DNA from: an uncultured virus (IMG/VR IMGVR_UViG_3300024999_000085)
Taxonomy: Duplodnaviria > Heunggongvirae > Uroviricota > Caudoviricetes
DNA: 20,000 nt
IMG/VR virus record: IMGVR_UViG_3300024999_000085
Reading direction: 5' to 3' (one strand)
Shown: in pieces, positions 4,497-19,098 of the stretch
Position numbering within the stretch: the first letter of the stretch is position 1
Layout: the number at the start of each line of letters is the position of its first letter
The notes under the pieces: model-generated
What the model was told of the DNA's origin: nothing
Database searches by the model: none
Seen by the model: the letters and a program-made list of their open reading frames with translations, nothing else
Made by a program: the position numbers and the translations under genes

Positions 4497-5657
4497 TTAA
4501 TCTGTTATAATTTTTCTTATTTTGGAATACTCAATAAATTCAGTATAACCTTTTTCTGAGGCTATTTCAACTAAGTTATTCCAAGTTAATTTTAATGTAT
4601 CTTGTAAACTAATGGTAGGTATCAACTCAGTAAGTAAATGTGTAAATTGTAAAGATGCTTTGAAAGTTTCAATTTTTAACGTACCGCGAAAAATTCTAAT
4701 TTCTACAGTATCATCATTTTTTAAGTTAACGGCAAAATATCGGCCCTCAGCCTTAGCCTTTTTACAGATCTCAGCAGGTTCTTCCTCTGTTGATAAATTG
4801 TTATAACGGTTACAATATTCTACAATTTGACTATTTTTTCTTCTGGAAAACTTTTTAATGTTATCCCAATTAGTCTCAAAAAATAATAATAGTTTAGCAA
4901 TATTTAAATCCTGCTCATGTTCTGATTTGCCAAAAGCTAACTTGCTAATGTGTATATGCATCCCACAAGTGCCTAAGTCATGGCTAGAATAGCCTTTTGT
5001 ATCGCATTCATCCAATATATATTGCCATCCCATATTTTTCATATGGTAAGAATATGTACAAGGATGACTAACTAATTCCATACCGCGCTTAATTGAACCA
5101 TCTTTTTTAATGTAAAGGTATTTTTCATACTCGGTAAGGTCAGTCCCGTTGGCTTGATCATGAATTTCTAAAGCATGATCTTCCTTAGATTCATAACAAT
5201 CACGTTCCTGTTCTTCTGTTCTGTCAATTTCTAACTCTATTCCATAATATGTATTTGTTACTTCATTAGTCATAGAATGGAAATTTAAGGTTTCTGGTGT
5301 ATATTTATAGTCGTGAATAAAGGTTAGATTATTTTTAATGTCATTTTGACAACTACAACAAACTGGTTCATTCTGCCATATTTCAGTGTTATCACGTTCT
5401 ACAATATTTTCGCATTCGGAACAAATTATTAAATCTAATTCCTCAATGCAGTTATGACAAGCATAATTATTATGTCCTTCTGTTATATTACTTTCGTGAT
5501 ACTCAGTATTACAAAAACTACAAGTTTTAATTTCCTGTGCGCACTCATCGCAATAATATTCATCCTCTGTAAAATTTCCATCTCGTTGGTACATATTGTC
5601 AGATATATCAGTAAAACCACAATGGAAACAACTTACTAATTCTTCCTGTTCTGGCAT
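4497..5657 (-). CDS. Putative amidoligase (COOH-NH2 ligase, Amidoligase_2-like) with N-terminal multi-CxxC zinc-binding region
   Basis: Motifs YGIELEID, KKDGSI..GMELVSHP, TCGMHIHIS, RYFAVN and TVEIRIFRGTL. Six CxxC pairs in the first ~105 aa. AAGGAGG RBS. Confidence 0.88.
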   Translation of the reverse strand: MPEQEELVSCFHCGFTDISDNMYQRDGNFTEDEYYCDECAQEIKTCSFCNTEYHESNITEGHNNYACHNCIEELDLIICSECENIVERDNTEIWQNEPVCCSCQNDIKNNLTFIHDYKYTPETLNFHSMTNEVTNTYYGIELEIDRTEEQERDCYESKEDHALEIHDQANGTDLTEYEKYLYIKKDGSIKRGMELVSHPCTYSYHMKNMGWQYILDECDTKGYSSHDLGTCGMHIHISKLAFGKSEHEQDLNIAKLLLFFETNWDNIKKFSRRKNSQIVEYCNRYNNLSTEEEPAEICKKAKAEGRYFAVNLKNDDTVEIRIFRGTLKIETFKASLQFTHLLTELIPTISLQDTLKLTWNNLVEIASEKGYTEFIEYSKIRKIITD

Positions 5658-6966: not shown

Positions 6967-7389
6967 TAGATTTTAGGTAAATATTTTAAGAAAATTATAT
7001 TTATTTTCTATTAGTTGTATCGTGTTAATTAGTGCTGAATAGGTTTATATATTGTTAGGATTGGATTTAAGGGTAGTTTGTTTGATTTAGGTATTAGATT
7101 ACCTATTTTATTTTTAAAGTGTTTATGTGGGGTTTATATGAAGGTGTACTAGTTTATTAATACAGTGTGTCAGTGATGGTGTAAATAAGTATATGATAGT
7201 TTAATAATATTGTTTTAATTGGATTGGTGTATAAATTGCAGGAATAGGCTTTATTCGTGTTAGGATTAGATATAAGATGTTTTATTATGATTTAGGTATA
7301 ATATGAAGTGTTAGAGATGAATTAAGATTGTTTGGTATTTGATTATGTGTTTATGTATTGGGTATCTAGTAGCAAGGAATAAATATAGT

Positions 7390-7594
7390 GGTAATAGGTT
7401 GGTATTGTGTATTGATAATATAGATAGTATATCAGATAGCATATAGGTATTATATATTTAGTAGTATGATATGTTAAAAGTGGTAACAAGGTTAGTAATA
7501 TTGTTAGTAGTATTGTGGTAATATGATACTGATATAAACGGTAGCATAGTATGGTAGCATAGAAGTAATATTATATAGTGTGATATGGTAGCAT
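7390..7594 (+). repeat. Cluster 2 of GGTARCAW-like octamers
   Basis: GGTAGCAT at 7540, 7553 and 7587, GGTAACAA at 7482, GGTAATAT at 7517. Shares ATAAACGGTA(G/T)CAT with cluster 1. Confidence 0.65.
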
Positions 7595-7717
7595 TGTATA
7601 GTATATAGTATATGTATATAGATAGTATAGCTTTGTTTGGAGTGTTGTATAGTTGTTAGTGTATTTATATGTGTTAGTGATGCTTAGTGTTAGCTGTAGC
7701 TGTGGTGGTATGTATAG

Positions 7718-7765
7718 ATAGATTGTATAGAGGTTATAGAGGTTATAGATTGTATAGAGGTTATA
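7718..7765 (+). repeat. 21-bp direct repeat
   Basis: ATAGATTGTATAGAGGTTATA at 7718-7738 and 7745-7765. Confidence 0.85.
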
Positions 7766-8169
7766 TTATAGGTGTATTAGGTAGATAGTACACTTATAAA
7801 TATGTGGTGTATAGTGTTAGATAGTATAGATATAGATATTATAGATATATTGCTAGTATGTTTATGTATTTTATAGATAGTATTATAATTTGTTTATGGT
7901 ATTGGTATTATTTTATATGTGGTTTGTAATCCCAATTTTGATGTATAATTTATATGTAAAGTGGGGAGTTGATGGTTAAATTGTGAGGAATTTAGGGTTA
8001 AAGTGGGGAAAATATCTATATCGTAATATTGAGATATATGGATATATAGATATATAGATAAGAAATGTTCTTTGTTAGGAAATTTTACTAGATAGGAATG
8101 ATTCTTATTTAGGATTTATTCTTAGGTGTGATTTATTATTATTTAATATGGCTGGTTGATGGTTGGTTA

Positions 8170-8350
8170 GATAGTTAATATGATTAATAGTTAAGCAGGT
8201 TAATAGTTAACTATGTAAAGTATTTTTTTAAAGTAGATAGTTTGATTATACAATATAGTTAAGTATGTTAATTGTTTAAATAGTTAATTATTAAGTAGGT
8301 AAATAGTTAAGGTAATAAATAGTTAAGTAGGTTAAGTATATTAATAGTTC
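8170..8350 (+). repeat. Array of ATAGTTAA motifs (operator-like)
   Basis: About seven ATAGTTAA copies, several forming imperfect palindromes such as ATAGTTAAGTAGGTTAAGTAT and ATAGTTAACTATGTAAAGTAT. Confidence 0.7.
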
Positions 8351-8398
8351 AACAAAAAATTTCTTGTTATAACTTTCGATGGACTGACAAGGCAAAAT

Positions 8399-8413
8399 AC
8401 TTGACAGTCAAGT
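8399..8413. promoter_or_regulatory. Perfect 7-1-7 palindrome abutting parS
   Basis: ACTTGAC-A-GTCAAGT. Cognate protein unknown. Confidence 0.6.
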
Positions 8414-8428
8414 GTTCCACGTGGAACA
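8413..8428. promoter_or_regulatory. parS: parS site (ParB/Spo0J binding)
   Basis: Perfect palindrome TGTTCCACGTGGAACA matching the bacterial chromosomal parS consensus. Two tandem half-site-like TGTTCCACA copies follow at 8449-8466. Confidence 0.9.
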
Positions 8429-8801
8429 TAAAAATTATAATTATAGTTTGTTCCACATGTTCCACAGGTTTTATATTTTTCTATAGGTACGATAAATTTT
8501 ATTAATCCGGTGGTCATAGCTTCACCTGTGGCGATACATCTATAGTTTATAGTTTACCTATACTATCTATTCATCTATCAAAATAATCCGATATATAACC
8601 TCTATTCTATTTCTTAGGTTATATTATACCTAATTAAATTTTACTCTTCAAATAGAGGCTATATTTCAATCAAAATTTAGCGTTCTAATTGAGCTTTAAT
8701 ATGTTTAATTAATTAACACCAGTCAAACAGACTATTCACCTACACATCATACACAACAAACAACCTAACAATTCCCTATAATACCACAATTTACCATAAT
8801 A

Positions 8802-8829
8802 ACTTCGCATAAGGTTTATTATGTGGAGA
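8802..8829 (+). other. dif/Xer-like recombination site
   Basis: ACTTCGCATAA-GGTTTA-TTATGTGGAGA. The 11-6-11 layout has the CGCATAA and TTATGT inner arms of dif, but the outer right arm diverges. Confidence 0.6.
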
Positions 8830-8874
8830 GATTCAAAGGAGATGGGGGCAGGACGGGGCATGGTTTACAAAAAT

Positions 8875-8893
8875 GATAGTGATTATCATTATC
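8875..8893. promoter_or_regulatory. Fur box
   Basis: GATAGTGATTATCATTATC matches the classical GATAATGATAATCATTATC at 17 of 19 positions. Confidence 0.75.
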
Positions 8894-9359
8894 ATATGCC
8901 ACCACATCTATTATCCACTTAGACCTTAGTAGTAAAACGATGCGACTCTCGCATATTAATCGTATAACCATACAAATAATAAATATTTCTATAATATATA
9001 ATCCTTATTCCAATCTCACTCCATTCTTATACAATACTATCCCAATTATAATTAAATCTACCGTATTCATTCTTCTTACTCTCTTCTATCTCCTTCCATG
9101 AATATCTTCTAAACACACTAATATCAATACGTTTATATCTTATCACATCCTATCACAAATAACCAATATTATTAATAATACATCAATTAAATCATACTCA
9201 AATCTTAATCAAATAACAACAAAATTATAAATATCGAATACTAATTTAATAATAAATTTTAAATTAATTTATAGTTATAAATTTGCTTAAAAAACATTAT
9301 ATAATGTACCTTATTATTAATTTTAAACCTTTCAAATAATATAACTAAATAAAATTACA

Positions 9360-9608
9360 TTAGTTAAATTTTTTAAAATTAACATTCTTATTCACATTTT
9401 CACCAAATAACATCCAACCTCTAACCCATATCCTTTCTATCTCATATATCCTCTCAATTTCTTCTCTAACAATAAATTCACTTAAAAAATCAAATAAGTC
9501 ATCTTTATCTTTTAATAATTCTTCATACTTAGTATCAATCACACAACTAAATTCTTTCAACAATATATTACAAAAATGTTCTCCTATATAAACTGTATAT
9601 ATTTTCAT
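9360..9608 (-). CDS. Hypothetical protein, 82 aa
   Basis: Open frame co-oriented with its neighbours; weak RBS. Confidence 0.55.
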   Translation of the reverse strand: MKIYTVYIGEHFCNILLKEFSCVIDTKYEELLKDKDDLFDFLSEFIVREEIERIYEIERIWVRGWMLFGENVNKNVNFKKFN

Positions 9609-9663
9609 TTTTTATATTTCTCATTTAATTTTATTATATTTTACTTTAGTTTTATATATTAAT

Positions 9664-9972
9664 CTACATATTCAATATCTCATCTATACTTTTATATTCA
9701 TAATCAAAATAAATCAATACAATTTCTATTCCCTTCTCCAAAACAAAATTATAATTAATCCATACTTCCAATATTTCATTATTAATAACAATCTCTAATG
9801 ATGCACCTTCTTTTATAAACTTATTACCTTCCCTCACATCATTTATATACTCTGCAAAATCAACAATATATTCTATACAATTATTAAAATCAATTTCACT
9901 TATCTCATAACCAACTCTACTGCTCAAATAATTTTTCATTTTTGATTTATTTAATAGTCTATAATTTATCAT
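9664..9972 (-). CDS. Hypothetical acidic protein, 102 aa
   Basis: AAGGAGTG RBS at normal spacing. Confidence 0.75.
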   Translation of the reverse strand: MINYRLLNKSKMKNYLSSRVGYEISEIDFNNCIEYIVDFAEYINDVREGNKFIKEGASLEIVINNEILEVWINYNFVLEKGIEIVLIYFDYEYKSIDEILNM

Positions 9973-10175
9973 ATTAATTTCACTCCTTATACTTTATTAT
10001 ATTTTTAATTTGTTGATATTAATCTACCCATAATATTAAACTTTATTCTTTAATTTATTCTTTGAATTTATTTACATTATAAAAACCAACCAACTTATCA
10101 AAATACAGTTTATCTACCTTAAATGCCTATTATACCTATTTTTATTAACATTAACATTCTAATTTAAACTTTAAC

Positions 10176-10204
10176 AAAAAATAATCTCCCATTTAGAGAG
10201 ATTA
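10176..10204 (-). terminator. Intrinsic terminator after ORF 10215-10535
   Basis: Minus strand TAATCTCTC-TAAAT-GGGAGATTA followed by TTTTTT. Confidence 0.7.
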
Positions 10205-10214
10205 AATAATTCAT

Positions 10215-10535
10215 CTATTTACAATGTATTCTTATAGAGGAGGTTGAATCCATTCTTCCATTACTATTCCTATCTCTATTTCCATTATCCCTATACACAT
10301 ATCCAAAATACCACAATAAACTTCCACTAAATACACCTAACCCATAACAAATAAAACTTATATATCTAAATAAATCACTTAATCCTAATATCCCAATTCC
10401 ATTCCTACTTCCCATATCTCCTATCATTAATCCACTTATAGAGAATAAAATTAAACATATTATCGCTGATCCATACATTATATTTTTCACATTAACATCA
10501 ATACTTGTCTTACTTACACTTTCTATATTCTCCAT
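10215..10535 (-). CDS. Small membrane protein with two predicted TM helices, 106 aa
   Basis: Two hydrophobic stretches and AAAGGA RBS. Confidence 0.7.
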   Translation of the reverse strand: MENIESVSKTSIDVNVKNIMYGSAIICLILFSISGLMIGDMGSRNGIGILGLSDLFRYISFICYGLGVFSGSLLWYFGYVYRDNGNRDRNSNGRMDSTSSIRIHCK

Positions 10536-11073
10536 TTAAATTTATCCTTTCTATTACTATTCTATTTATTGTTTTATCTTGTATTTATCTTGTCCATTAA
10601 ATTTTAATCTATGCACATAATAATAAATATTTTTATTATTTCAATCAACTATCTAATTAATATTTTAATAACTTAATAATATAATTATTTGCCTAATTAT
10701 TTATCTTTCTATTTAATCATATATTTATCTAATTAACTATTCACGCAATAAATAATCTAATCAATCAACTAGCCATATGGGGCATATTAAACAATTTAAC
10801 AATCTACCCATCCCACCTATTACTTCACTCCCATCAAATCCAACCTAAAAAACTATACCACAGAAGTTTTCATACTTCTAACTTCTTACTCCTGAATCAC
10901 CTGATAAGTAATTAATAGTATTGGACAAACTAATTTATATCTTCTACAATATATATCCTTATATATATCCTAACTCATATTTTCTATCATATTGTATGAC
11001 ATATTGTACTATTTCATAATATATCTATACAACAATATTATAATGTACAACCAATAAATTTACAAAAAAAATA

Positions 11074-11814
11074 TCACAATCCTAAATATAATTTTATCTC
11101 ATCAACAGTTTTAACTATAAATTTAATTCCTAATTTCTTCTTTACACCATTATCAATATAATCATATTTGATATTATCTATCTCTACACTTCTTAAAACC
11201 TTCAACTTCTTATTCTCACTATTGCACACAATCAATATATTAGGGAATCTCTTAACTCTATCACACCAATATTCATTTAAATACAATTTATTTTTAAATA
11301 TATCATTATAATTAATAACTTTCATAAATTTATTATTGCTCTCAACTTTATCACTCTCAATAATATAATACTTATATTCATTTGTTACATAGTTAATAAA
11401 TCCTATAATACCGTCTGGTCTTTTACCACATTCCATAACATACTCTATCTCGATATCATTAAACTTATAATACTTATAGTTAATACTCACATATCTCAAC
11501 AAATAAATAAATCCCCAATTTCTATTTATATCATGTGAAATAAACCTATTATTCTTATACTTTTTATTTGTAAAATAAATATTACACTCATTTATATCTA
11601 ATCTAATATTATTAATTTTCCCTTTACCTTTCAATATCCTCAATCTCTCCCTACACTTAACTATTCCATATTTTATTGAAGAAAAAAACAACAAATAAAT
11701 TTGTAATGTTGTCAATACTCCAAACTCCTCTATTATATCAATTATACACTTATCTCGGTAATAACCTTTTTGTCTCGTTGTCATTGATCTGAAATTGAAT
11801 AAATGGGTCAACAT
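11074..11814 (-). CDS. Replication-relaxation (Replic_Relax-like) protein: winged HTH plus PD-(D/E)xK-like nuclease
   Basis: Motifs GVLTTLQIYLLFF...RERLRIL, ISHDI, RPDGII and YIIESD. Overlaps the 3' end of an FtsK gene, the usual pairing for this family. Confidence 0.8.
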   Translation of the reverse strand: MLTHLFNFRSMTTRQKGYYRDKCIIDIIEEFGVLTTLQIYLLFFSSIKYGIVKCRERLRILKGKGKINNIRLDINECNIYFTNKKYKNNRFISHDINRNWGFIYLLRYVSINYKYYKFNDIEIEYVMECGKRPDGIIGFINYVTNEYKYYIIESDKVESNNKFMKVINYNDIFKNKLYLNEYWCDRVKRFPNILIVCNSENKKLKVLRSVEIDNIKYDYIDNGVKKKLGIKFIVKTVDEIKLYLGL

Positions 11815-13108
11815 TTAGATCATCACCTTTATTGTAAAAATAACTTGCTTTATTTACATTATCACATCTATCTAATTTCTTATCAAACATTACTAATCTT
11901 CTAATTGCCTCTTTTTGTTCTAATAACATTGCTTGCAATTCCATTTGATTAGAACCATATTGAAATATCATTCTACCTTTAATATTCGGCAAATAATAAG
12001 CATCTGTATTCCCTAATACAGTCATACTAGTACCATAATTTACAGTTTTAAAACTAATTGCACATGGGAAATTTGATTTTATTTCCATAGGAATTAATTT
12101 ATCAGAAGGTCTTTGCATTGCTATAATTAAATGTATTCCAGTCTTAGCACTTATCATACCTAAATCTGCACATATATTTTGTAATCTTTGTCTTCTACTT
12201 TTTGTTACTTTGTCATCACTTTTTCTAGGTGAAGTAAAAGCAAATTCATCAATGACTAATACAATATAATTCATTTTATTATTAGGATTTTTTTCATTAT
12301 ATTCAATAAGATTTACACAATTATTTTGAACAAGAAAATATCTTCTTCTTTCAACTTCTTGCATCAAGCACTCTAAAATAATTTCTGCGGTATCTAAATT
12401 ATATCCAAATACAATATGGTCTTTTAAGTGTACAAAATCAGTCATTGCTAAATCTGTTACAAATAATTTAACATTATTATTTTGCATTATGGCATCACAG
12501 ATTCCAGTTAATAAAATACTCTTGCCCGATCTAGTCACGCCTCCAATAATAATATGTGGTACTATTGCCAAATCAACAATTATAGGCATACCAGCAACAC
12601 TAACACCTATAGGAATCGGTATGCTTTTATCCATATATTCAGCATAATTAAAATTATATCTATATAATTCAGGTACAACACCTTTAATAACTTCAACCAT
12701 TAATAATCCTCTTCTTTTTTCTATATTAACATGTGCTATTATAGAATCTGCAAAATAGTTTTTTCTATCAATAATATATTTAAAATTTAAACCATAAGGC
12801 AATTTAAACATTACTTGATAATGAATATCACTTTTCTTAGTTGTTGCTATATGATAAGGATATTCACCTCTATTATTATGACAATTAGTTTGTATAAACA
12901 CATTCTCTATTTCTGCTGGTATATTTCTTGACTTACGTGTTCTAATTAATTTCTTAATTGAAGTTTTTAAATCCTCTGGTTTTTGAACTTTAAGTGGATT
13001 GTAACCTAATTTTAAATCCCATAAATAACTTTTAAAACTTTCTTTTAAATCAGATTTATACTTATTCCAATTTTCTTTAATATCTACTTTATCTTTTTTG
13101 CCTTCCAT
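11750..13108 (-). CDS. FtsK/SpoIIIE-family ATPase (DNA translocase or coupling protein); likely start MEGKK at 13108
   Basis: PHIIIGGVTRSGKS (Walker A), IVLVIDEFA (Walker B), GIHLIIAMQRP, LGNTDAYYLPNIKGR. AAGGAG RBS before the ATG at 13108. Confidence 0.92.
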   Translation of the reverse strand: MEGKKDKVDIKENWNKYKSDLKESFKSYLWDLKLGYNPLKVQKPEDLKTSIKKLIRTRKSRNIPAEIENVFIQTNCHNNRGEYPYHIATTKKSDIHYQVMFKLPYGLNFKYIIDRKNYFADSIIAHVNIEKRRGLLMVEVIKGVVPELYRYNFNYAEYMDKSIPIPIGVSVAGMPIIVDLAIVPHIIIGGVTRSGKSILLTGICDAIMQNNNVKLFVTDLAMTDFVHLKDHIVFGYNLDTAEIILECLMQEVERRRYFLVQNNCVNLIEYNEKNPNNKMNYIVLVIDEFAFTSPRKSDDKVTKSRRQRLQNICADLGMISAKTGIHLIIAMQRPSDKLIPMEIKSNFPCAISFKTVNYGTSMTVLGNTDAYYLPNIKGRMIFQYGSNQMELQAMLLEQKEAIRRLVMFDKKLDRCDNVNKASYFYNKGDDLNVDPFIQFQINDNETKRLLPR

Positions 13109-13152
13109 AATAAACTCCTTTCTAAATTTTATAGAATATAAATATAATTGTG

Positions 13153-13181
13153 TTGACTTTGGTAAACAAATATGATATAAT
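13153..13181 (+). promoter_or_regulatory. Sigma-A promoter of HNH cassette 1
   Basis: TTGACT-17 bp-TATAAT with an extended -10 TG. Confidence 0.8.
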
Positions 13182-13215
13182 ACAAATAAAAACAATATTA
13201 AGGAGGAAAATTTTA

Positions 13216-14301
13216 TTGAAAAAGAATAAAATAGAATTTGAAGGAGATTTAATGTATTTATATCCTACTAATAAACCAGATGTTAAATTTACATTAGACA
13301 GAGAAGATTATGATAAGATTAAAGATTATTGTTGGAGTATGGCAAAAGGTGAATTCTTAAAATCATATTATAATAAAAAGTATATTAAATTAACTGATTT
13401 ATTATTAGGTGATTTTATTGATAATAATTATATTGTGTATAATGATGATAATAATTTTAATCTTTGTAAGAATAATATAATCATTAATAATAAAATTGAA
13501 ATTTATAATGATTATATTATTCTATATTCAGCAAATACTAAAGATAAGTATATTATTGATATTGATGATTATGAAAAAATAAAAAAATATAGATGGAATG
13601 TAGGAACTTTAGGAATAATTAATAGTTGTATAAATAATAAAAATATTTCTTTAAAACAATTTATTAAACCATATGATAATAAATATAACATAATTAATTT
13701 TATAGATAATAATATTTATAATTATAGAAAAAATAATTTAATAATATGTCAAAAAAATAATTTTAACAAACCTAAATCCGGTAAAATTATTATCTTCCCT
13801 AGTTTTCTAATTGCTATTCCAGATAATACTAACAATAAATTTATTTTTCCTTTGGAAATGTTAGAAATATTTAAAAAATATAGTTTTTTTGAAAGTGATA
13901 AAAATTATTTAAAATTATCTATTGATAGTAAAAAATATTTCGCACATCATTTTGTAATTGGAAATCCATTAAATAAAAAATATTTTGTAGTAGACCATAT
14001 AAATAGAAATACATATTTTAATTTAAAATATAATTTAAGAATAGTACCTAAAGGTTTTAATAATCAGAATAAAAATATACTTTCTAATAATAAAACTGGA
14101 TTTATTGGAGTCAAAAAATTTAAAACAAAATGGAATTCATGCATTGGTTATAAAAACAAAGAAATTACCATTGGTTGTTATAAAAATATTATAGATGCAG
14201 CAAAAGCATATGATAAAAAAGCATTAGAACTATATGGAGAAAATGCCATTACAAATGAAAAATTAGGAAGATATGAAATTTATTATAATAAAAATTTATA
14301 A
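13216..14301 (+). CDS. HNH homing endonuclease with C-terminal AP2 domain and repeated degenerate HNH-like units; likely TTG start at 13216
   Basis: VDHINRNTYFNLKYNLR (HNH) and NKTGFIGV..W...IG....IGCY....DAAKAYDKKALELYGENA (AP2). Two earlier repeats of DxEDYxKIKxYxW. AAGGAGG lies before the TTG; the track start at 13150 overlaps the promoter. Confidence 0.85.
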   Translation: MKKNKIEFEGDLMYLYPTNKPDVKFTLDREDYDKIKDYCWSMAKGEFLKSYYNKKYIKLTDLLLGDFIDNNYIVYNDDNNFNLCKNNIIINNKIEIYNDYIILYSANTKDKYIIDIDDYEKIKKYRWNVGTLGIINSCINNKNISLKQFIKPYDNKYNIINFIDNNIYNYRKNNLIICQKNNFNKPKSGKIIIFPSFLIAIPDNTNNKFIFPLEMLEIFKKYSFFESDKNYLKLSIDSKKYFAHHFVIGNPLNKKYFVVDHINRNTYFNLKYNLRIVPKGFNNQNKNILSNNKTGFIGVKKFKTKWNSCIGYKNKEITIGCYKNIIDAAKAYDKKALELYGENAITNEKLGRYEIYYNKNL

Positions 14302-14311
14302 ATTATAAATA

Positions 14312-14349
14312 TAATTCTATAGTGTTGTAAAAATAACACTATAGAATTA
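14312..14349. terminator. Strong hairpin between convergent genes (likely bidirectional terminator)
   Basis: TAATTCTATAGTGTT-GTAAAAAT-AACACTATAGAATTA, a 15-bp perfect stem. Confidence 0.7.
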
Positions 14350-14353
14350 ATTA

Positions 14354-15073
14354 TTACCACTTAAATAATCTTCCATTCTTTGGTTTAGTAATATAATTCT
14401 TAAATCCTTTAACTAAATCAATAACTTTACTACTAATTTTTTTACTAGTATCATTTTCAATATATTTAATAACTCCATCAATAATTTTCTCATAGCATTT
14501 TTCATCGATGTCACTCATTCTACTTGAACCTATATCACGTTTGATAACTACTTTACTACCATTATTTTCAATAAAAATATCAATACTTCCTGGTGTATAA
14601 TCATCAGTTATTTTAATATTTTCATTAAATTTTTCTTCTTTTTTATTAATATTCTCCCTCTTATTTATGTCGTCTTTATTAATTATTTCCTCTTTTTTAT
14701 TGATATTATTACTAATATTATGATTTTTTTGCTCATTATACTGTTTATTTTCTCCATACTGTTTATTATCATTTATTTCCTTTTTATCAATATTCTCTTT
14801 ATACTCAGTATATTCCTTATTCTCATTATAATTTTTATTCTCATTATAAGTTTTTTCACTACTATTATTACCATTTTCAGCATTAGCATCAACACTAACA
14901 ATTAAAGGTAATTTTCTATCCTTGATCATTAATTCACCATAAAATTTTCCATTATTATAATTATAAATTTTTGCATCAATGTTATCACTTTTGAACCATA
15001 AACTATTCATACCTAACATAACAAATAATGCCATTGCACCTATAATAACTTTATTGACTATGATAGTTTGCAT
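14354..15073 (-). CDS. Membrane-anchored or secreted protein with low-complexity N/E/K linker, 239 aa
   Basis: N-terminal hydrophobic helix, central YNENK/NKKEE repeats and GAGGTG RBS. Confidence 0.75.
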   Translation of the reverse strand: MQTIIVNKVIIGAMALFVMLGMNSLWFKSDNIDAKIYNYNNGKFYGELMIKDRKLPLIVSVDANAENGNNSSEKTYNENKNYNENKEYTEYKENIDKKEINDNKQYGENKQYNEQKNHNISNNINKKEEIINKDDINKRENINKKEEKFNENIKITDDYTPGSIDIFIENNGSKVVIKRDIGSSRMSDIDEKCYEKIIDGVIKYIENDTSKKISSKVIDLVKGFKNYITKPKNGRLFKW

Positions 15074-15077
15074 ATTC

Positions 15078-15461
15078 TCACCTCGTCCTTGGATACTCAG
15101 TCAATTTTCTTAAAAATGAATTATCAGGTAGATTATCATCAATAATTTTATCAATTGGTTTTTGCACATTTTCTTTATCATATAATTTACTAGTAGGATC
15201 AACATATTTCTTAACATCATTGATTTTATCTTCTACATATTGTTGTTTCTTTTGTTCTTCTTCAACTAAAGGCAATACTTTCTCCATAACTGTACTTAAA
15301 CAAGAAAATACAACTATGACTATAATCATTTTTGACATATTTCTTTTACTTAATGCTCTGCAAATAAAATATACAAATGCACCAATTATAGTCATAATCA
15401 TCAATTGAGGTAGACATAAACATAAAATAGCAAATAATAATATTGGTATTATAAATAACAT
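15078..15461 (-). CDS. Small membrane protein, SpoIIIAC/AD-like helical hairpin plus soluble tail, 127 aa
   Basis: Pattern IIGAFVYFICRALSKRNMSKMIIVIVVFSCL (helix, basic turn, helix). AGGAGG RBS. Family call by eye. Confidence 0.6.
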   Translation of the reverse strand: MLFIIPILLFAILCLCLPQLMIMTIIGAFVYFICRALSKRNMSKMIIVIVVFSCLSTVMEKVLPLVEEEQKKQQYVEDKINDVKKYVDPTSKLYDKENVQKPIDKIIDDNLPDNSFLRKLTEYPRTR

Positions 15462-15473
15462 CTATATATCCTC

Positions 15474-15764
15474 CTAGAAATATGCTAATAATTTATTTAC
15501 TATTGTTAAACCTGAATCTATCATAATTGCAGTAGCAACAAATGTAGCAACTATACCTATTAATACAGCAAAATTTTGCTTACCTATTATTTTACATATT
15601 TGTTCTAATATAAAAGCAGCAATAGCACAACCACCAATTAGAAGTATAGCAAATCCAGGTTTACCTATACCAACAGTTTCTTTCATTAATCCATAAACAG
15701 TTATAGCATAACAAGGCATGGGGGTTAGGATAACAAGTAATAAAGTGTAGATTAATTTACTCAT
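15474..15764 (-). CDS. Membrane protein with signal peptide and SpoIIIAC-like C-terminal half, 96 aa
   Basis: IAAFILEQICKIIGKQNFAVLIGIVATFVA resembles the SpoIIIAC pattern (hydrophobic-QxLKxxGKEExA-hydrophobic). Signal-peptide-like N-terminus ending PCYA. Confidence 0.65.
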   Translation of the reverse strand: MSKLIYTLLLVILTPMPCYAITVYGLMKETVGIGKPGFAILLIGGCAIAAFILEQICKIIGKQNFAVLIGIVATFVATAIMIDSGLTIVNKLLAYF

Positions 15765-15977
15765 TTAAAAACCTCCTATTGGGAACATTTTAAATGTGTT
15801 TATTAATAATTCAGATAACATATATGATAAAACTATTAATCCAATTATTATTGTAGATATTTGAGTAATATATTTTTGTTTTTCTTCTATAGGAATTCTG
15901 TTTATTATTAAATTTGTAAATACCAATGCTAATATAAATGCTATAATTTGTAAAATATTAATACTAATACTATTCAT
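15765..15977 (-). CDS. SpoIIIAC-like two-TM protein, 70 aa
   Basis: Size and pattern (ILQIIAF...NLIINRIPIEEKQKYITQISTIIIGLIVL..MLSELL.NTFKMF) resemble SpoIIIAC. AGGAGGT RBS. Confidence 0.6.
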   Translation of the reverse strand: MNSISINILQIIAFILALVFTNLIINRIPIEEKQKYITQISTIIIGLIVLSYMLSELLINTFKMFPIGGF

Positions 15978-16000
15978 ATAAGTACCTCCTATAATAATTA

Positions 16001-16249
16001 TTAATTAGTAATAATTGATGCACAAAAAATTATAAATAATAAATATACTAATGTTAATATAAATTTTTCTTTTATTGTTGCACGGAATATCATTTGAATA
16101 ACTATTATTGCTGATGATATAAATACAAGATACTTATAAATCAATAAATAATAAATATTATTACTAGTTAAAATAGCTATAATAAAACCAATAAACAATG
16201 TTGCTAATAATATAATAGTGTATTTATATTTTCTAATAAAATTTAACAT
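16001..16249 (-). CDS. Small membrane protein with about three TM helices, 82 aa
   Basis: Three hydrophobic segments and AGGAGGT RBS. Confidence 0.7.
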   Translation of the reverse strand: MLNFIRKYKYTIILLATLFIGFIIAILTSNNIYYLLIYKYLVFISSAIIVIQMIFRATIKEKFILTLVYLLFIIFCASIITN

Positions 16250-16346
16250 ATTATACCTCCTATTTTTATTTTAATAAAAATGGAATTCAATCTAATTTAA
16301 CATTATCCGTAAAATGGATGCAAGGTAATTTATATTTACTAATTAA

Positions 16347-16577
16347 CTAATCTTCGTCTTCATCATAAAAACCATTTTCATGCAACCAATCATCTTCTAC
16401 ACCTAATACTTCCATAACTATTTCAATAGGTATACCTGTTTTTCTACATATAAAACTAGCAACATTATCTGTATTCATTATTAAATCATTTGATGGATCT
16501 ATGTCTATATTATTTGTATATTTTATACTTTTAATGAGATTTATTGTATTAGTGATTACGTTAGTTAATAGTTTCAT
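16347..16577 (-). CDS. Hypothetical protein with acidic C-terminus, 76 aa
   Basis: Starts 9 bp after the upstream stop with an AGGATGG RBS. Confidence 0.7.
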   Translation of the reverse strand: MKLLTNVITNTINLIKSIKYTNNIDIDPSNDLIMNTDNVASFICRKTGIPIEIVMEVLGVEDDWLHENGFYDEDED

Positions 16578-16586
16578 ATAACCATC

Positions 16587-16919
16587 CTATAATGGAAAAT
16601 TCCATTTAATAGTTTCTTTTTTATTGCAATTGTTGTTACTATTATTAATATCAGTTTTTCTATTAATCTGTCTAACTTCAACATTAATATTATCATTATC
16701 CGTATTGGATGCAATGGTAAATTTATTATTATTAGTATCATTAATAGTATCATTAGCAAACACATCTTCAACAACATCATTACTTATACTCTTACTAATT
16801 AATAAACTTCCTCTCAACACACCTCTAATAAATTCTGACATATTATTATTTTTATACTTGTTGAGTAATGAAATTAGTTCGTTATCATTTTTCTTGTTAA
16901 GTCTAAAATTAATCATCAT
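16587..16919 (-). CDS. Putative ribbon-helix-helix DNA-binding protein (ParR/CopG-like N-terminus), 110 aa
   Basis: MMINFRLNKKNDNELISLL...NMSEFIRGVLR fits a strand-helix-helix pattern, followed by a disordered tail. AAGGAGTG RBS. First gene of the operon. Confidence 0.65.
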   Translation of the reverse strand: MMINFRLNKKNDNELISLLNKYKNNNMSEFIRGVLRGSLLISKSISNDVVEDVFANDTINDTNNNKFTIASNTDNDNINVEVRQINRKTDINNSNNNCNKKETIKWNFPL

Positions 16920-16971
16920 TTTAAAATCACTCCTTTTTAATTTTTGATAGTTTGGTTTGTATATGTTAGTT

Positions 16972-17063
16972 TGTATGACGGTTATATTTAATTATATTTG
17001 ACTGTATGACATATTATACATGGTAATTTTTAGTGTATGACATATGTATTGTGAATGTATGAC
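16972..17063. repeat. Four TGTATGAC direct repeats upstream of the RHH gene
   Basis: Copies start at 16972, 17003, 17034 and 17056 (spacing 31, 31, 22 bp). A fifth copy is at 10993. Confidence 0.85.
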
Positions 17064-17122
17064 AAGATATAAAATGAATAATAAAACAATAAATAAATTT
17101 AATAATTATTTTTATATTCCTA

Positions 17123-18276: not shown

Positions 18277-19098
18277 TTGAGTGAAAAGAAATTTCAAGTA
18301 TGTGAAGTATGTGGTATTACAAGTGATGAAACAAGAGTCAATTTTAGAGAAAAATATAATATGATTTTATGTGCTAAACATAATGAACAATTAAAAAAAA
18401 ACATGGTACATTAAAACCAAATCTTGAAAGAAATAGAAGATTACATAATGAAATAAAAATTAGGTATTGTGAAGTTTGTGGTGTTTCTAATAAAGATACA
18501 GAAGTATATCATTATAAAAAATATAATATGACATTATGTAATAAACATATAAATCAAATGAATTTTTATGGTAAAATACAAAATAAAACAAGAAAGGAAT
18601 TAAATGATTATATTTTATATGATACACATGCAGAAATTATTTTATATGATGATAATAATTTAGAAAAAGCAAGAGCAATAATTGATTTAGAAGATGTTGA
18701 AAAATGCAAACCTTATAGATGGGGTATTAGTAATGGTTATATTAAAACAAATAAAAATAAATTACAAAATTTTATTTTAGATTATAAAGGTAAAATTGAT
18801 CACAAAAATAGAAATCCATTAGATAATAGAAAAAACAATTTAAGATATGCAACACATCAAGAAAATACTAGAAATATATCAAGGAGAAAAGATAATATGA
18901 GTGGTTTTACATATTACATGGGCAAATGATAAAAATAAATGGAGAGCAAGAATAAATATTGGTGATAATAATGTATTACATTTAGGTTATCATGAAAACA
19001 TAGATGATGCTATTATTGAAAGACTTAAAGCAGAAAAACAATACTTTGGTGAGTTTGCTCCACAACAACATTTATATGAACAATATGGAATTGTTTAA
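18277..19098 (+). pseudogene. Frameshifted zinc-finger/HNH/AP2 endonuclease
   Basis: One protein in three frames. From the TTG at 18277: CEVCG...LCAKH. After a shift in the A9 run (18393-18401): a second CEVCG...LCNKH, then IDHKNRNPLDNRKNNLR (HNH). After a second shift near 18912: ITW...NKWRARI...HLG...AEKQYFGEFAP (AP2). Confidence 0.8.

Follow-up and report, generated by a model that had tools for sequence, protein, structure and literature searches.

We report that a 20,000-nucleotide stretch of an uncultured virus (IMG/VR record IMGVR_UViG_3300024999_000085; the whole stretch is hereafter called the window) carries a gene cassette that is very probably of the same kind as the 'DNA translocation operon' of Bacillus phages. 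It joins an FtsK-family ATPase, an overlapping gene of the Replic_Relax nuclease type and a group of small membrane proteins, and we are confident in describing it as a clostridial-type, very AT-rich version of the operon found in Bacillus phages and plasmids. In the phages and plasmids of Bacillus and related bacteria, few unexplained cassettes are as common as an FtsK-type pump paired with a Replic_Relax nuclease, which has been noted since the Gamma-phage genomes. The cassette is known; what appears to be new is its SpoIIIAC-like partner, the fusion of that partner to an M23 peptidase, and the clostridial lineages. Clostridia-type elements carry the Bacillus-type pump and nuclease, and the most faithful third partner is a secreted two-helix hairpin, related by profile to SpoIIIAC/AD and sometimes fused to a wall hydrolase, which gives the cassette a defined membrane component. 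This component raises the question of whether DNA is moved across the septum into spores or between cells. Thermoanaerobacterium with plasmid pMU3262 is a cultured host of the clearest SpoIIIAC-type version.

A conserved gene set in related viral contigs

The relatives of the window are six IMG/VR viral contigs of 39-143 kb, three of which are identical in the cassette genes; their ATPases are 54-95% identical to that of the window. All six have the same order of genes, namely those for a tyrosine recombinase, a ribbon-helix-helix (RHH)-like protein, the 96-, 127- and 239-amino-acid (aa) proteins, the ATPase, the 246-aa Replic_Relax-type protein and a 106-aa protein (Table 1). Since set and order recur in 6/6 related contigs, the core gene set reflects more than chance. 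The module extends past position 11074 to include the 106-aa gene, which is conserved in every relative and is followed by a terminator-like site.

An earlier note on this DNA, made from the sequence alone, had described a tightly packed leftward run that includes four small membrane proteins. Every open reading frame (ORF) that it named was confirmed on the minus strand. The packing is not tight throughout: a plus-strand HNH-AP2 gene, overlooked in the note, lies between the 239-aa and FtsK genes and, with a terminator-like palindrome, splits the run. Among the four membrane proteins, those of 96, 127 and 70 aa are indeed related hairpins, while the 82-aa ORF is confined to the window and occurs in 0/6 relatives. 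The 96- and 127-aa genes are the only small membrane genes kept in 6/6 relatives, and the 70-aa gene is found in 2/6. The HNH-AP2 gene is an optional homing-endonuclease insert, given its family match and its presence/absence polymorphism at the site: of the six relatives only L004 shares it with the window, another has an Xre-type regulator there (L003), and the remainder have nothing (L005-L008).

The DNA motor

The window ATPase lies above the gathering cut-off of PF01580 (53.9 bits, cut-off 24, E 2.1e-14) and matches phrog_1358 at E 4.6e-54. Its translation contains a Walker A motif (GGVTRSGKS), a Walker B motif (VLVIDEF) and AMQRPS in the arginine-finger region, all of them invariant in a five-sequence alignment. 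Cellular FtsK and SpoIIIE have an N-terminal membrane domain and a C-terminal DNA-reading (gamma) domain, whereas the window ATPase has neither on inspection: no hydrophobic stretch precedes the motor, in agreement with the earlier observation that this FtsK has no obvious transmembrane domain, and the approximately 50 residues after the motor end in a conserved K-R-L-L-P-R without an obvious gamma domain.

The closest solved relatives by sequence are 6o1z, 6o1w and 6o1x (129.6 bits, E 1.1e-36), all three entered as 'DNA translocase coupling protein'; FtsK (2ius) follows with 82.1 bits, and EssC/YukB likewise stand behind the coupling-protein entries. We take these three entries to be TcpA of plasmid pCW3, from the TcpA structure mentioned in PMC12857230. 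A direct BLASTP comparison with pCW3 TcpA gave 31% identity over 257 aa (E 2e-33), higher than that with the Bacillus phage proteins (~25%). Judged from its sequence, the ATPase is nearest to the TcpA-type conjugative coupling proteins, more so than to FtsK. The TcpA hexamer has been described as more FtsK-like than TrwB-like, which prompted the idea of double-stranded transfer (PMC12857230).

The C-terminal tails of these FtsK-type proteins are alike in three diverged lineages, reading TKRLLPR in the window (11750-11800), and PKMLSPR and VKRLPPR in two others (L026 near 6386 and L032 near 4247). In each case the tail is encoded at the junction or overlap with the Replic_Relax gene, and it might be a docking motif.

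The Replic_Relax (MOBC-family) protein

The overlapping gene had been called Replic_Relax-like, and this holds at the level of profile comparison, though the Pfam match of the window protein is sub-threshold. Alignment of its 24-sequence family with hhalign to five above-threshold Replic_Relax proteins (from BtCS33, DZ1, Novomoskovsk, pMU3262 and pBC210) gave a probability of 97.05% (E 8e-11) over 166 columns that span both domains. A hidden Markov model (HMM) of the window family matched above-threshold homologues at E 1e-27 to 1e-32, and the homologue from a sister lineage of 40% guanine-plus-cytosine (GC) content, described below, passes PF13814 itself with 36.6 bits. Two relatives remain sub-threshold (15.3 and 18.2 bits). 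A total of 21 homologues were found, all metagenomic, one of which has a precomputed PF13814 assignment. Most relatives begin at MxTRQKGYYRD, and H94, D134, E153 and D155 are invariant in the family and are candidate active-site residues. Judged by profile, then, the 246-aa protein is a divergent Replic_Relax (MOBC-family) protein, with a winged-helix N-terminus and a PD-(D/E)XK-type C-terminus.

PF13814 belongs to the MOBC relaxase superfamily (PMC5357655; PMC12857230), and the Replic_Relax family has been placed in the PD-(D/E)XK fold (PMC3424549). The earlier note had seen no canonical relaxase in the window; because PF13814 is itself a MOBC relaxase family, that claim does not stand, and the 246-aa gene is the relaxase that had seemed to be missing. 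Sequence searches of the PDB with the Replic_Relax family returned no match.

Hairpin membrane proteins and SpoIIIAC/AD

The 96-aa protein has a signal-peptide-like N-terminus ending in CYA, followed by a two-helix hairpin with the basic loop KIIGKQN. SpoIIIAC and SpoIIIAD (PF06686) have the same plan, two helices joined as a hairpin by a short loop that is polar or basic. When 1.84 billion representative sequences were searched by profile, 40 relatives of the 96-aa family were obtained at E<=1e-3. Three of five family members match Pfam SpoIIIAC, all below the cut-off of 24 bits: the window protein with 12.3 bits (E 0.2) and two relatives with 15.2 and 11.9 bits (E 0.025 and 0.27). The most distant of the five matches Spore_III_AE at E 0.00066. 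Among the 40 wider relatives there are four sub-threshold SpoIIIAC matches (14.8-21.9 bits, best E 2e-4) and none above 24 bits.

The families were also compared by profile. With hhalign, the 41-sequence hairpin family aligned to SpoIIIAC over its full length (58 columns) with scores of 25.6-27.6 and probabilities of 43-60%; the control comparison of SpoIIIAC with SpoIIIAD gave 25.2-29.5. Against reversed SpoIIIAC the score was 9.9, 100 column shuffles of SpoIIIAC reached at most 15.2 (0/100 attained the real score), and five other small membrane families scored <=12.6 against SpoIIIAC. The 70-aa family aligned to SpoIIIAC with a score of 24.6 (probability 40.9%, 51 columns); a SpoIIIAC HMM matched one of its members at E 0.0019, and its own HMM matched the SpoIIIAC-family protein of pMU3262 at E 0.0025. 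An HMM of the hairpin family, built without SpoIIIAC sequences, picked out the same PF06686 protein of pMU3262 at E 2.7e-6 among 1385 ORFs. The 96- and 127-aa families are paralogous (hhalign probability 93.7%, E 2e-7). In the ESM Atlas the nearest named family of the hairpin is a SpoIIIAC cluster (score 0.76), which is a lead only.

The specificity of these matches is reflected in what the hairpins do not resemble. Neither the hairpin family nor SpoIIIAC aligned with the 106-, 82- and 239-aa families or with two Bacillus 'TrbC-like' proteins (hhalign probability <=1.7%). TrbC and T4SS_pilin gave no match to the 96-aa family (E<=5) or to its 40 wider relatives (E<=0.1); one member of the 127-aa family matched T4SS_pilin at E 0.87. 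A TrbC/VirB2 identity for the hairpins, a lead from the Novomoskovsk paper, was rejected for want of any Pfam or profile match. TcpD was likewise considered for the 127-aa protein and set aside: the NCBIfam TcpD_dom match is sub-threshold (E 0.0028; two of five family members, 17.5 and 15.1 bits, cut-off 24), and hhalign against pCW3 TcpD gives no support.

On the strength of these profile comparisons we place the proteins of 96, 127 and 70 aa in a single hairpin superfamily together with SpoIIIAC/AD, below the curated membership cut-off. The likeness of three membrane proteins to SpoIIIAC/AD that had been proposed is thus upheld at the level of remote homology, with a score equal to that between SpoIIIAC and SpoIIIAD. 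We read it as a superfamily link and not as membership because the reference alignments are small (5 and 4 sequences; true SpoIIIAC and SpoIIIAD were taken from the spoIIIA operons of four 'Bacteriophage sp.' records). The hairpins described here differ from SpoIIIAC/AD in that all lie below the Pfam cut-off, most have a signal peptide, and their neighbours are phage or plasmid genes, a DNA motor and a nuclease, never a spoIIIA operon. Of the links on which the rest depends, the one to SpoIIIAC/AD is the weakest.

The records used as references deserve a remark. Seven 'Bacteriophage sp.' records match SpoIIIAC, and the four inspected (MT835785, MT835798, MT835955 and MT835629) each have a full spoIIIAA-AH operon, next to which stand genes of housekeeping type, identified by eye from their translations (argS, prfC, ligA and radA). 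As phage cassettes these 'UNVERIFIED Bacteriophage sp.' records were rejected; they look like fragments of bacterial chromosomes, and were used as reference sequences only.

Linkage of the hairpins with motor and nuclease in other lineages

The proposed linkage of the hairpins with FtsK and Replic_Relax is conserved in several diverged lineages. When viral contigs were searched with the hairpin alone, six loci of 40% GC in three variants were recovered, and in 6/6 the hairpin gene overlaps the end of a Replic_Relax gene, which itself overlaps an FtsK gene. In this lineage the hairpin is followed by a 194-aa protein in which a second hairpin, a homologue of the 127-aa protein, is joined to a complete Peptidase_M23 domain (E 1.8e-33; L026:7239-7823, also L024 and L029). 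The neighbours of these loci (CI/Cro-type regulators, a holin and an amidase) resemble those of an ordinary temperate phage. The M23 domain matches are generic, with MepM, ShyA and Pgp3 scoring as well as SpoIIQ (E 5.8e-20).

With the same query, nine loci were recovered from metagenome contigs. In eight of them a Replic_Relax gene immediately precedes the hairpin gene on its upstream side, accompanied in seven by FtsK; two loci are cut by contig ends, one lying on a 1.1-kb contig (without FtsK) and the other ending 247 nucleotides (nt) upstream of the hairpin. Because the 40% GC lineage accounts for three of these loci, two of them on contigs of the same length as viral loci already counted, the fresh metagenomic evidence consists of a lineage of ~50% GC and the one 1.1-kb fragment.

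Plasmid pMU3262 (NC_017998, Thermoanaerobacterium) carries in direct succession a 63-aa SpoIIIAC-family gene, a 120-aa signal-peptide protein, FtsK and an overlapping Replic_Relax gene. Its 63-aa hairpin is a clear member of the SpoIIIAC family (TIGR02848 E 8.3e-14; PF06686 precomputed). A tyrosine recombinase and ParM are encoded a few kb upstream of the cassette, and a Spo0E-family gene lies just downstream. The overlapping FtsK/Replic_Relax pair is also present in the Bacillus phages BtCS33, DZ1 and Novomoskovsk, and in plasmid pBC210 the pair is adjacent, not overlapping. The Bacillus phages thus keep the ATPase-nuclease pair with a different small membrane partner.

Among 30 cluster representatives of the hairpin relatives, three have named hosts (Moorella, Desulfosporosinus and Desulfotomaculum). 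A tblastn search of plasmids and phages with a consensus-like hairpin found none. The SpoIIIAC-like partner of the cassette appears to be new: no SpoIIIAC-like protein tied to phages, plasmids or this cassette was found in the literature on SpoIIIAC/SpoIIIAD homologues or, by title and start of abstract, in that on SpoIIIAC and phage.

Comparison with known systems

The 'DNA translocation operon' was named in phage 0305phi8-36 by Pathria et al. 2012 (PMC3357382), whose account gives it a relaxase of MOBC-like type, a coupling ATPase lacking any membrane domain and membrane anchors encoded apart from it, and lists homologues in SPO1, GBSV1, BV1 and the Gamma/Cherry/Fah/WBeta phages; particle-free spread from cell to cell was proposed for it there. 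The window repeats this arrangement, with a MOBC-like gene adjoining a coupling-type ATPase without a membrane domain, separate membrane proteins and a setting in phages of Bacillota. The differences are that the window proteins are only ~24-25% identical to those of the Bacillus phages, that the membrane partners in 0305phi8-36 are VirB6-like and MreB/ParM-like whereas those of the window are SpoIIIAC-like hairpins, and that the window motor is nearer to clostridial TcpA, in an element of ~23% GC with an uncultured host.

The Bacillus pumilus phages Novomoskovsk and Bolokhovo (PMC9658697) have the same four kinds of gene, namely a motor, an overlapping Replic_Relax gene, a small two-helix signal-peptide protein and an RHH gene. 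Their order differs, the small membrane and RHH genes standing after the nuclease, and their motor has an N-terminal hydrophobic helix. Their small membrane protein shows no profile likeness to the hairpins or SpoIIIAC (probability <=1.7%), and it has a sub-threshold match to T4SS_pilin (E 0.015). Plasmid pMU3262 shares with the window the hairpin, a small signal-peptide protein, FtsK, an overlapping Replic_Relax gene and an upstream tyrosine recombinase; it differs in that its hairpin has no signal peptide and its motor has an N-terminal hydrophobic segment.

The window also resembles the Tcp locus of the Clostridium perfringens plasmid pCW3 (TcpM, TcpA, TcpD/E, TcpF, TcpG and TcpH), both in its motor and in the adjacent gene of tyrosine-recombinase fold. 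Beside the window motor there is a TcpD-like layout (signal-peptide-like start, two helices, basic loop), in layout only, and a wall hydrolase like that of pCW3 is seen only in the 40% GC sister lineage (M23). pCW3 has a VirB4-like TcpF and a VirB6-like TcpH, neither type of which was seen here, and its TcpA has N-terminal membrane segments, which the window motor lacks on inspection. The relaxase candidate of the window is of MOBC type, whereas that of pCW3 is of TcpM type. The MOBC relaxases TraX (pAD1) and MobC (CloDF13) share with the window protein the Pfam family PF13814 by profile, and a winged helix with a restriction-endonuclease-like domain. In streptococcal elements, MOBC relaxases pair with VirD4-type and not TcpA-type coupling proteins (PMC5357655).

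A possible nick-and-pump mechanism and the evidence against it

The earlier note had read the run as a minimal machine that nicks and pumps the element's DNA. This reading fits the families found and is not new, as it was published for Bacillus phages in 2012 (PMC3357382). We regard such a mechanism as evenly balanced between right and wrong. In this scheme the element's own DNA would offer a binding site to the RHH protein and to the winged helix of the Replic_Relax protein, whose nuclease part would nick or cut there. The hairpins with signal peptides (96 and 127 aa, with the 70-aa protein as an extra copy) would keep the ATPase hexamer at the membrane, and the 239- and 106-aa proteins, together with the M23 wall hydrolase in the sister lineage, would handle the envelope. 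The motor would then push the element's DNA across a membrane or septum. The analysis establishes the families of the proteins, the paralogy of the hairpins and their conserved linkage; we infer the binding, nicking and docking steps and, above all, the destination of the DNA, which may be a neighbouring cell, a daughter cell or the forespore.

Several points weigh against this mechanism, or against the assignments beneath it. Phages already own a route for moving DNA between cells. In the account of Pathria et al. (PMC3357382), deletion of the cassette of 0305phi8-36 type, the only published deletion, caused no growth defect in the laboratory. A VirB4-type ATPase is, according to a 2025 review, the signature of every type IV system (PMC12857230); the family scans found none in the 20-kb window, as had been noted earlier, and neither a VirB4-type ATPase nor a VirB6-like protein in the window or among 104 scanned ORFs of the closest relative (contig G001, 71% complete). 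The match of the 246-aa protein to PF13814 is weak (E 0.013; 16.1 bits, cut-off 25.3) and covers its N-terminal 45 residues only. Its AlphaFold model is poor (mean predicted local distance difference test (pLDDT) score 61.3), and a fold search with that model gave nothing significant (best E 0.021), many of the weak rows being PD-(D/E)XK nucleases. The membrane proteins showed no likeness to TcpB, TcpC, TcpD or TcpE of pCW3 (hhalign probability <=1%), single-sequence templates being a weak test. Lastly, because a homing endonuclease and a terminator split the run, co-transcription of its two halves is doubtful here.

Alternative explanations

The strongest alternative is that the genes form a maintenance module of a plasmid prophage, in which Replic_Relax is an initiator or origin binder while the motor and the Xer-like recombinase resolve dimers and clear the closing septum. 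We hold this to be unlikely. In its favour, no gene of the locus is better conserved than the divergent XerC/XerD-like recombinase (82-91% identity in 6/6 relatives), a ParB-like nuclease is encoded nearby in G001 (phrog_12047, E 1.4e-50), and both ParM and a tyrosine recombinase lie a few kb from the pMU3262 cassette. A noncoding block of ~2.3 kb with iteron-like AATAGTTAA repeats lies ~0.9 kb past the run, and the RefSeq name of the BtCS33 homologue is 'replication initiation protein'. FtsK, Replic_Relax, RHH and Xer genes have been filed under plasmid replication and segregation in accounts of phages (PMC9658697, PMC7685451), and activation of XerD by FtsK is established (PMC9226527). In such a module the motor would work in the manner of FtsK and XerCD at dif, and the membrane proteins would place it at the septum. 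Against this reading, the motor resembles conjugative TcpA more closely than FtsK, and inspection reveals no C-terminal domain for reading DNA and activating XerD. Replication or dimer resolution needs neither secreted hairpins nor an M23 peptidase, and the temperate-phage-like 40% GC lineage keeps the trio together with a wall hydrolase. Lytic phages, moreover, carry the cassette too (PMC3357382). If plasmid upkeep were all that the cassette did, the gain would be a modest one in annotation.

A second alternative, put forward in the earlier note, is a pump linked to sporulation, in which the SpoIIIAC/AD-like hairpins dock the motor at the sporulation septum or at the SpoIIIA-SpoIIQ channel and the unintegrated genome is driven into the forespore. 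The hairpin family is as SpoIIIAC-like as SpoIIIAD is, and in pMU3262 a clear SpoIIIAC-family gene occupies the same position with a Spo0E-family gene just downstream. Moorella, Desulfosporosinus and Desulfotomaculum, the three named hosts of hairpin relatives, are all endospore formers, a very small sample given that most relatives are metagenomic. G001 encodes a SpoIIID-like protein (phrog_11726, E 1e-16), and the M23 domain has the SpoIIQ fold, SpoIIQ being one of many M23 matches, equalled by MepM, ShyA and Pgp3. A sporulation role has been suggested for such genes (PMC4113786), and phage genomes do become trapped in spores, by a mechanism that is only partly known (PMC12991052). Set against this, no hairpin attains the curated SpoIIIAC cut-off, no other spoIIIA-like gene is found nearby and no tie of these genes to the spoIIIA operon was seen; the count of Spo0A boxes over the window is 0 against 0.53 expected, and Replic_Relax and TcpA-type proteins occur also in non-sporulating streptococci (PMC5357655). 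The case for a sporulation role of the cassette is circumstantial, and we judge this pump to be improbable. The bolder form of the idea, in which the hairpins are phage- or plasmid-borne offshoots of SpoIIIAC/AD that dock a nuclease-loaded TcpA-like motor, in a dedicated 'virospore' machine distinct from conjugation and from the host SpoIIIE, seems to us just as hard to credit. In the improbable event that it were true, phages and plasmids of spore-forming Bacillota would have their unintegrated genomes driven into the forespore by active pumping.

Least probable of all is a defence or exclusion device, in which a membrane-placed ATPase and a PD-(D/E)XK nuclease sense or expel incoming foreign DNA (superinfection exclusion) rather than move that of the element itself: pairs of these kinds are common in defence systems, the weak top rows of the fold search include the nucleases of Hachiman (HamA) and Shedu, without significance (E 0.021-0.19), the cassette of the Bacillus phage can be dispensed with under laboratory conditions (PMC3357382), and the site beside the cassette varies, being taken by an HNH gene, by an Xre regulator or by no gene, whereas the nuclease falls by profile in a relaxase family, the motor is nearest to a coupling protein, and the fold matches come from a poor model.

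Other genes of the run

The coordinates of the run and its surroundings are given in Table 1.

Table 1. Features of the cassette and its flanks in the window (positions count from the first letter of the 20,000-nt stretch)
Feature	Position	Strand	Basis or remark
XerC/XerD-like tyrosine recombinase, 282 aa	17214-18062	+	divergent from run; PF00589, PF02899
Three direct repeats, core GTGTATGACA	16997-17071		gap between RHH gene and recombinase gene; repeat search
RHH-like 110-aa protein, first gene of run	16587-16919	-	sub-threshold RHH matches in relatives
76-aa acidic protein, accessory	16347-16577	-	no family match
82-aa hydrophobic ORF, window-specific insert	16001-16249	-	no counterpart in relatives
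70-aa two-helix membrane hairpin, accessory	15765-15977	-	SpoIIIAC-like by profile
96-aa core membrane protein	15474-15764	-	SpoIIIAC-like by profile
127-aa core membrane protein	15078-15461	-	paralogous hairpin with charged C-terminal tail
239-aa protein with N-terminal hydrophobic helix and low-complexity linker	14354-15073	-	kept in 6/6 relatives
Terminator-like 15-pair palindrome	14349-14312	-	just 3' of 239-aa gene, at edge of HNH insert
HNH-AP2 homing endonuclease, 383 aa	13150-14301	+	phrog_99, E 3e-26
FtsK-family ATPase ORF	11750-13195, likely start 13108 (452 aa)	-	PF01580, phrog_1358; start judged from relatives
246-aa Replic_Relax-type protein	11074-11814, likely start 11784	-	overlaps end of FtsK gene
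106-aa two-helix membrane protein, last gene of run	10215-10535	-	kept in 6/6 relatives
Terminator-like stem and T run	10204-10182	-	ends FtsK / Replic_Relax / 106-aa unit

The recombinase matches PF00589 (E 1.3e-29) and PF02899 (E 8.5e-12), and the NCBIfam models of XerC (E 1.2e-45) and XerD (E 5.1e-44), in both cases far below the equivalog cut-offs. It was also considered as a TcpM-type relaxase and rejected, its likeness to pCW3 TcpM (20% identity, E 0.16) being one of fold only. The repeats between it and the run are a candidate operator or protein-binding site.

The 110-aa protein of the window matches no Pfam family at E<=0.01, and its gene is kept in all six relatives. Four relatives were scanned, and all four have sub-threshold matches of RHH type (E values: RHH_9 0.0035, RHH_1 0.012, RHH_3 0.035, DUF6290 0.0066-0.067, MobC_2 0.049), whereas the window protein itself gave none. 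RHH is the usual fold of relaxase helper proteins (PMC12857230). The 76-aa protein has no family match; it is present in three of the six relatives (92% identical in the closest, 42-43% in two, where its gene lies downstream of the Replic_Relax gene), and its gene is absent from the other three. The 82-aa ORF is doubtful as a real gene: its matches in relatives are chance antisense ones, hhalign against SpoIIIAC gives a probability of 0.1%, and the ~300 nt at 16002-16300, which lie between the 76- and 70-aa genes and hold just this ORF, have no aligned counterpart in G001.

In the 239-aa protein an Asn/Lys-rich linker precedes a conserved C-terminal part of ~95 aa, and identity across the six relatives is 32-63%. 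The C-terminal part has 29 relatives, all metagenomic and none with a Pfam family, and the protein has no match in Pfam, PHROG or the ESM Atlas; its predicted structure is unusable (mean pLDDT 46.2). One relative is recorded on a contig of 540,969 bases, and because of its size the cassette may sit in a chromosome or a very large element too. The 106-aa protein has no family match and no likeness to SpoIIIAC or the hairpin family (profile probability 0.2%); its gene takes the position of the 'TrbC/VirB2-like' gene in Bacillus phages.

The element and its surroundings

The window is very AT-rich (~23% GC) and has no tRNA or Rfam match over its 20 kb. The closest contig, G001 (142.8 kb, judged 71% complete), is collinear with it. 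A total of 188 ORFs of >=75 aa were called in G001, and the 104 of >=110 aa were scanned against PHROGs. Besides the ParB-like nuclease and the SpoIIID-like protein, the matches include helicases, an RNA ligase, an NAD-dependent DNA ligase, a tRNA nucleotidyltransferase, a Sak4-like protein and several HNH endonucleases; capsid, portal and large terminase genes were not seen among these 104 ORFs of the incomplete contig. Because of this PHROG content without capsid, portal or large terminase, we call the element phage-like or a phage-plasmid: it is probably a large element of one of these kinds, its phage nature being suggested by the IMG/VR relatives and the PHROG matches. Species-representative genomes, scanned with the FtsK and with the Replic_Relax alignment, contained no relative, and DNA similarity searches of the region gave nothing among phages and one 76-nt chance match among plasmids. 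G001 also encodes three TnpB-type transposases, a MazF-like protein and an RNA repair set (RNA ligase, nucleotidyltransferases); these and the SpoIIID-like gene map to L013 (18772-19374), L014 and L011 of G001.

A second HNH-AP2 endonuclease at 18528-19098 is split into overlapping ORFs of 133 and 65 aa, both of which match phrog_99, over profile segments that follow one another. It looks like a frameshifted copy and shares 42% identity with part of the gene inserted in the run.

The noncoding block beyond the run (7000-9340) displays extreme strand asymmetry. On the plus strand, the 1341 nt at 7000-8340 hold 41 C and 302 G; beyond ~8540 the bias is reversed, 100-nt windows at 9000-9400 holding 1-3 G and 8-30 C, and the reversed bias carries over into the genes of the minus strand at 9360-11000. 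Where the C-poor part has its inner edge, at 8163-8342, at least eight copies of the iteron-like AATAGTTAA are found, a cluster that could be an origin or a partition site, and further short repeat families, ATAGAGGTTATAG and GGTAGCATAG, occur at 7500-7770. Elsewhere in the window, the 386-aa product of 4497-5657 combines an Amidoligase_2 domain (E 1.6e-7) with an N-terminal part that is rich in Cys and resembles a zinc ribbon; pCW3 carries a gene of the amidoligase family too.

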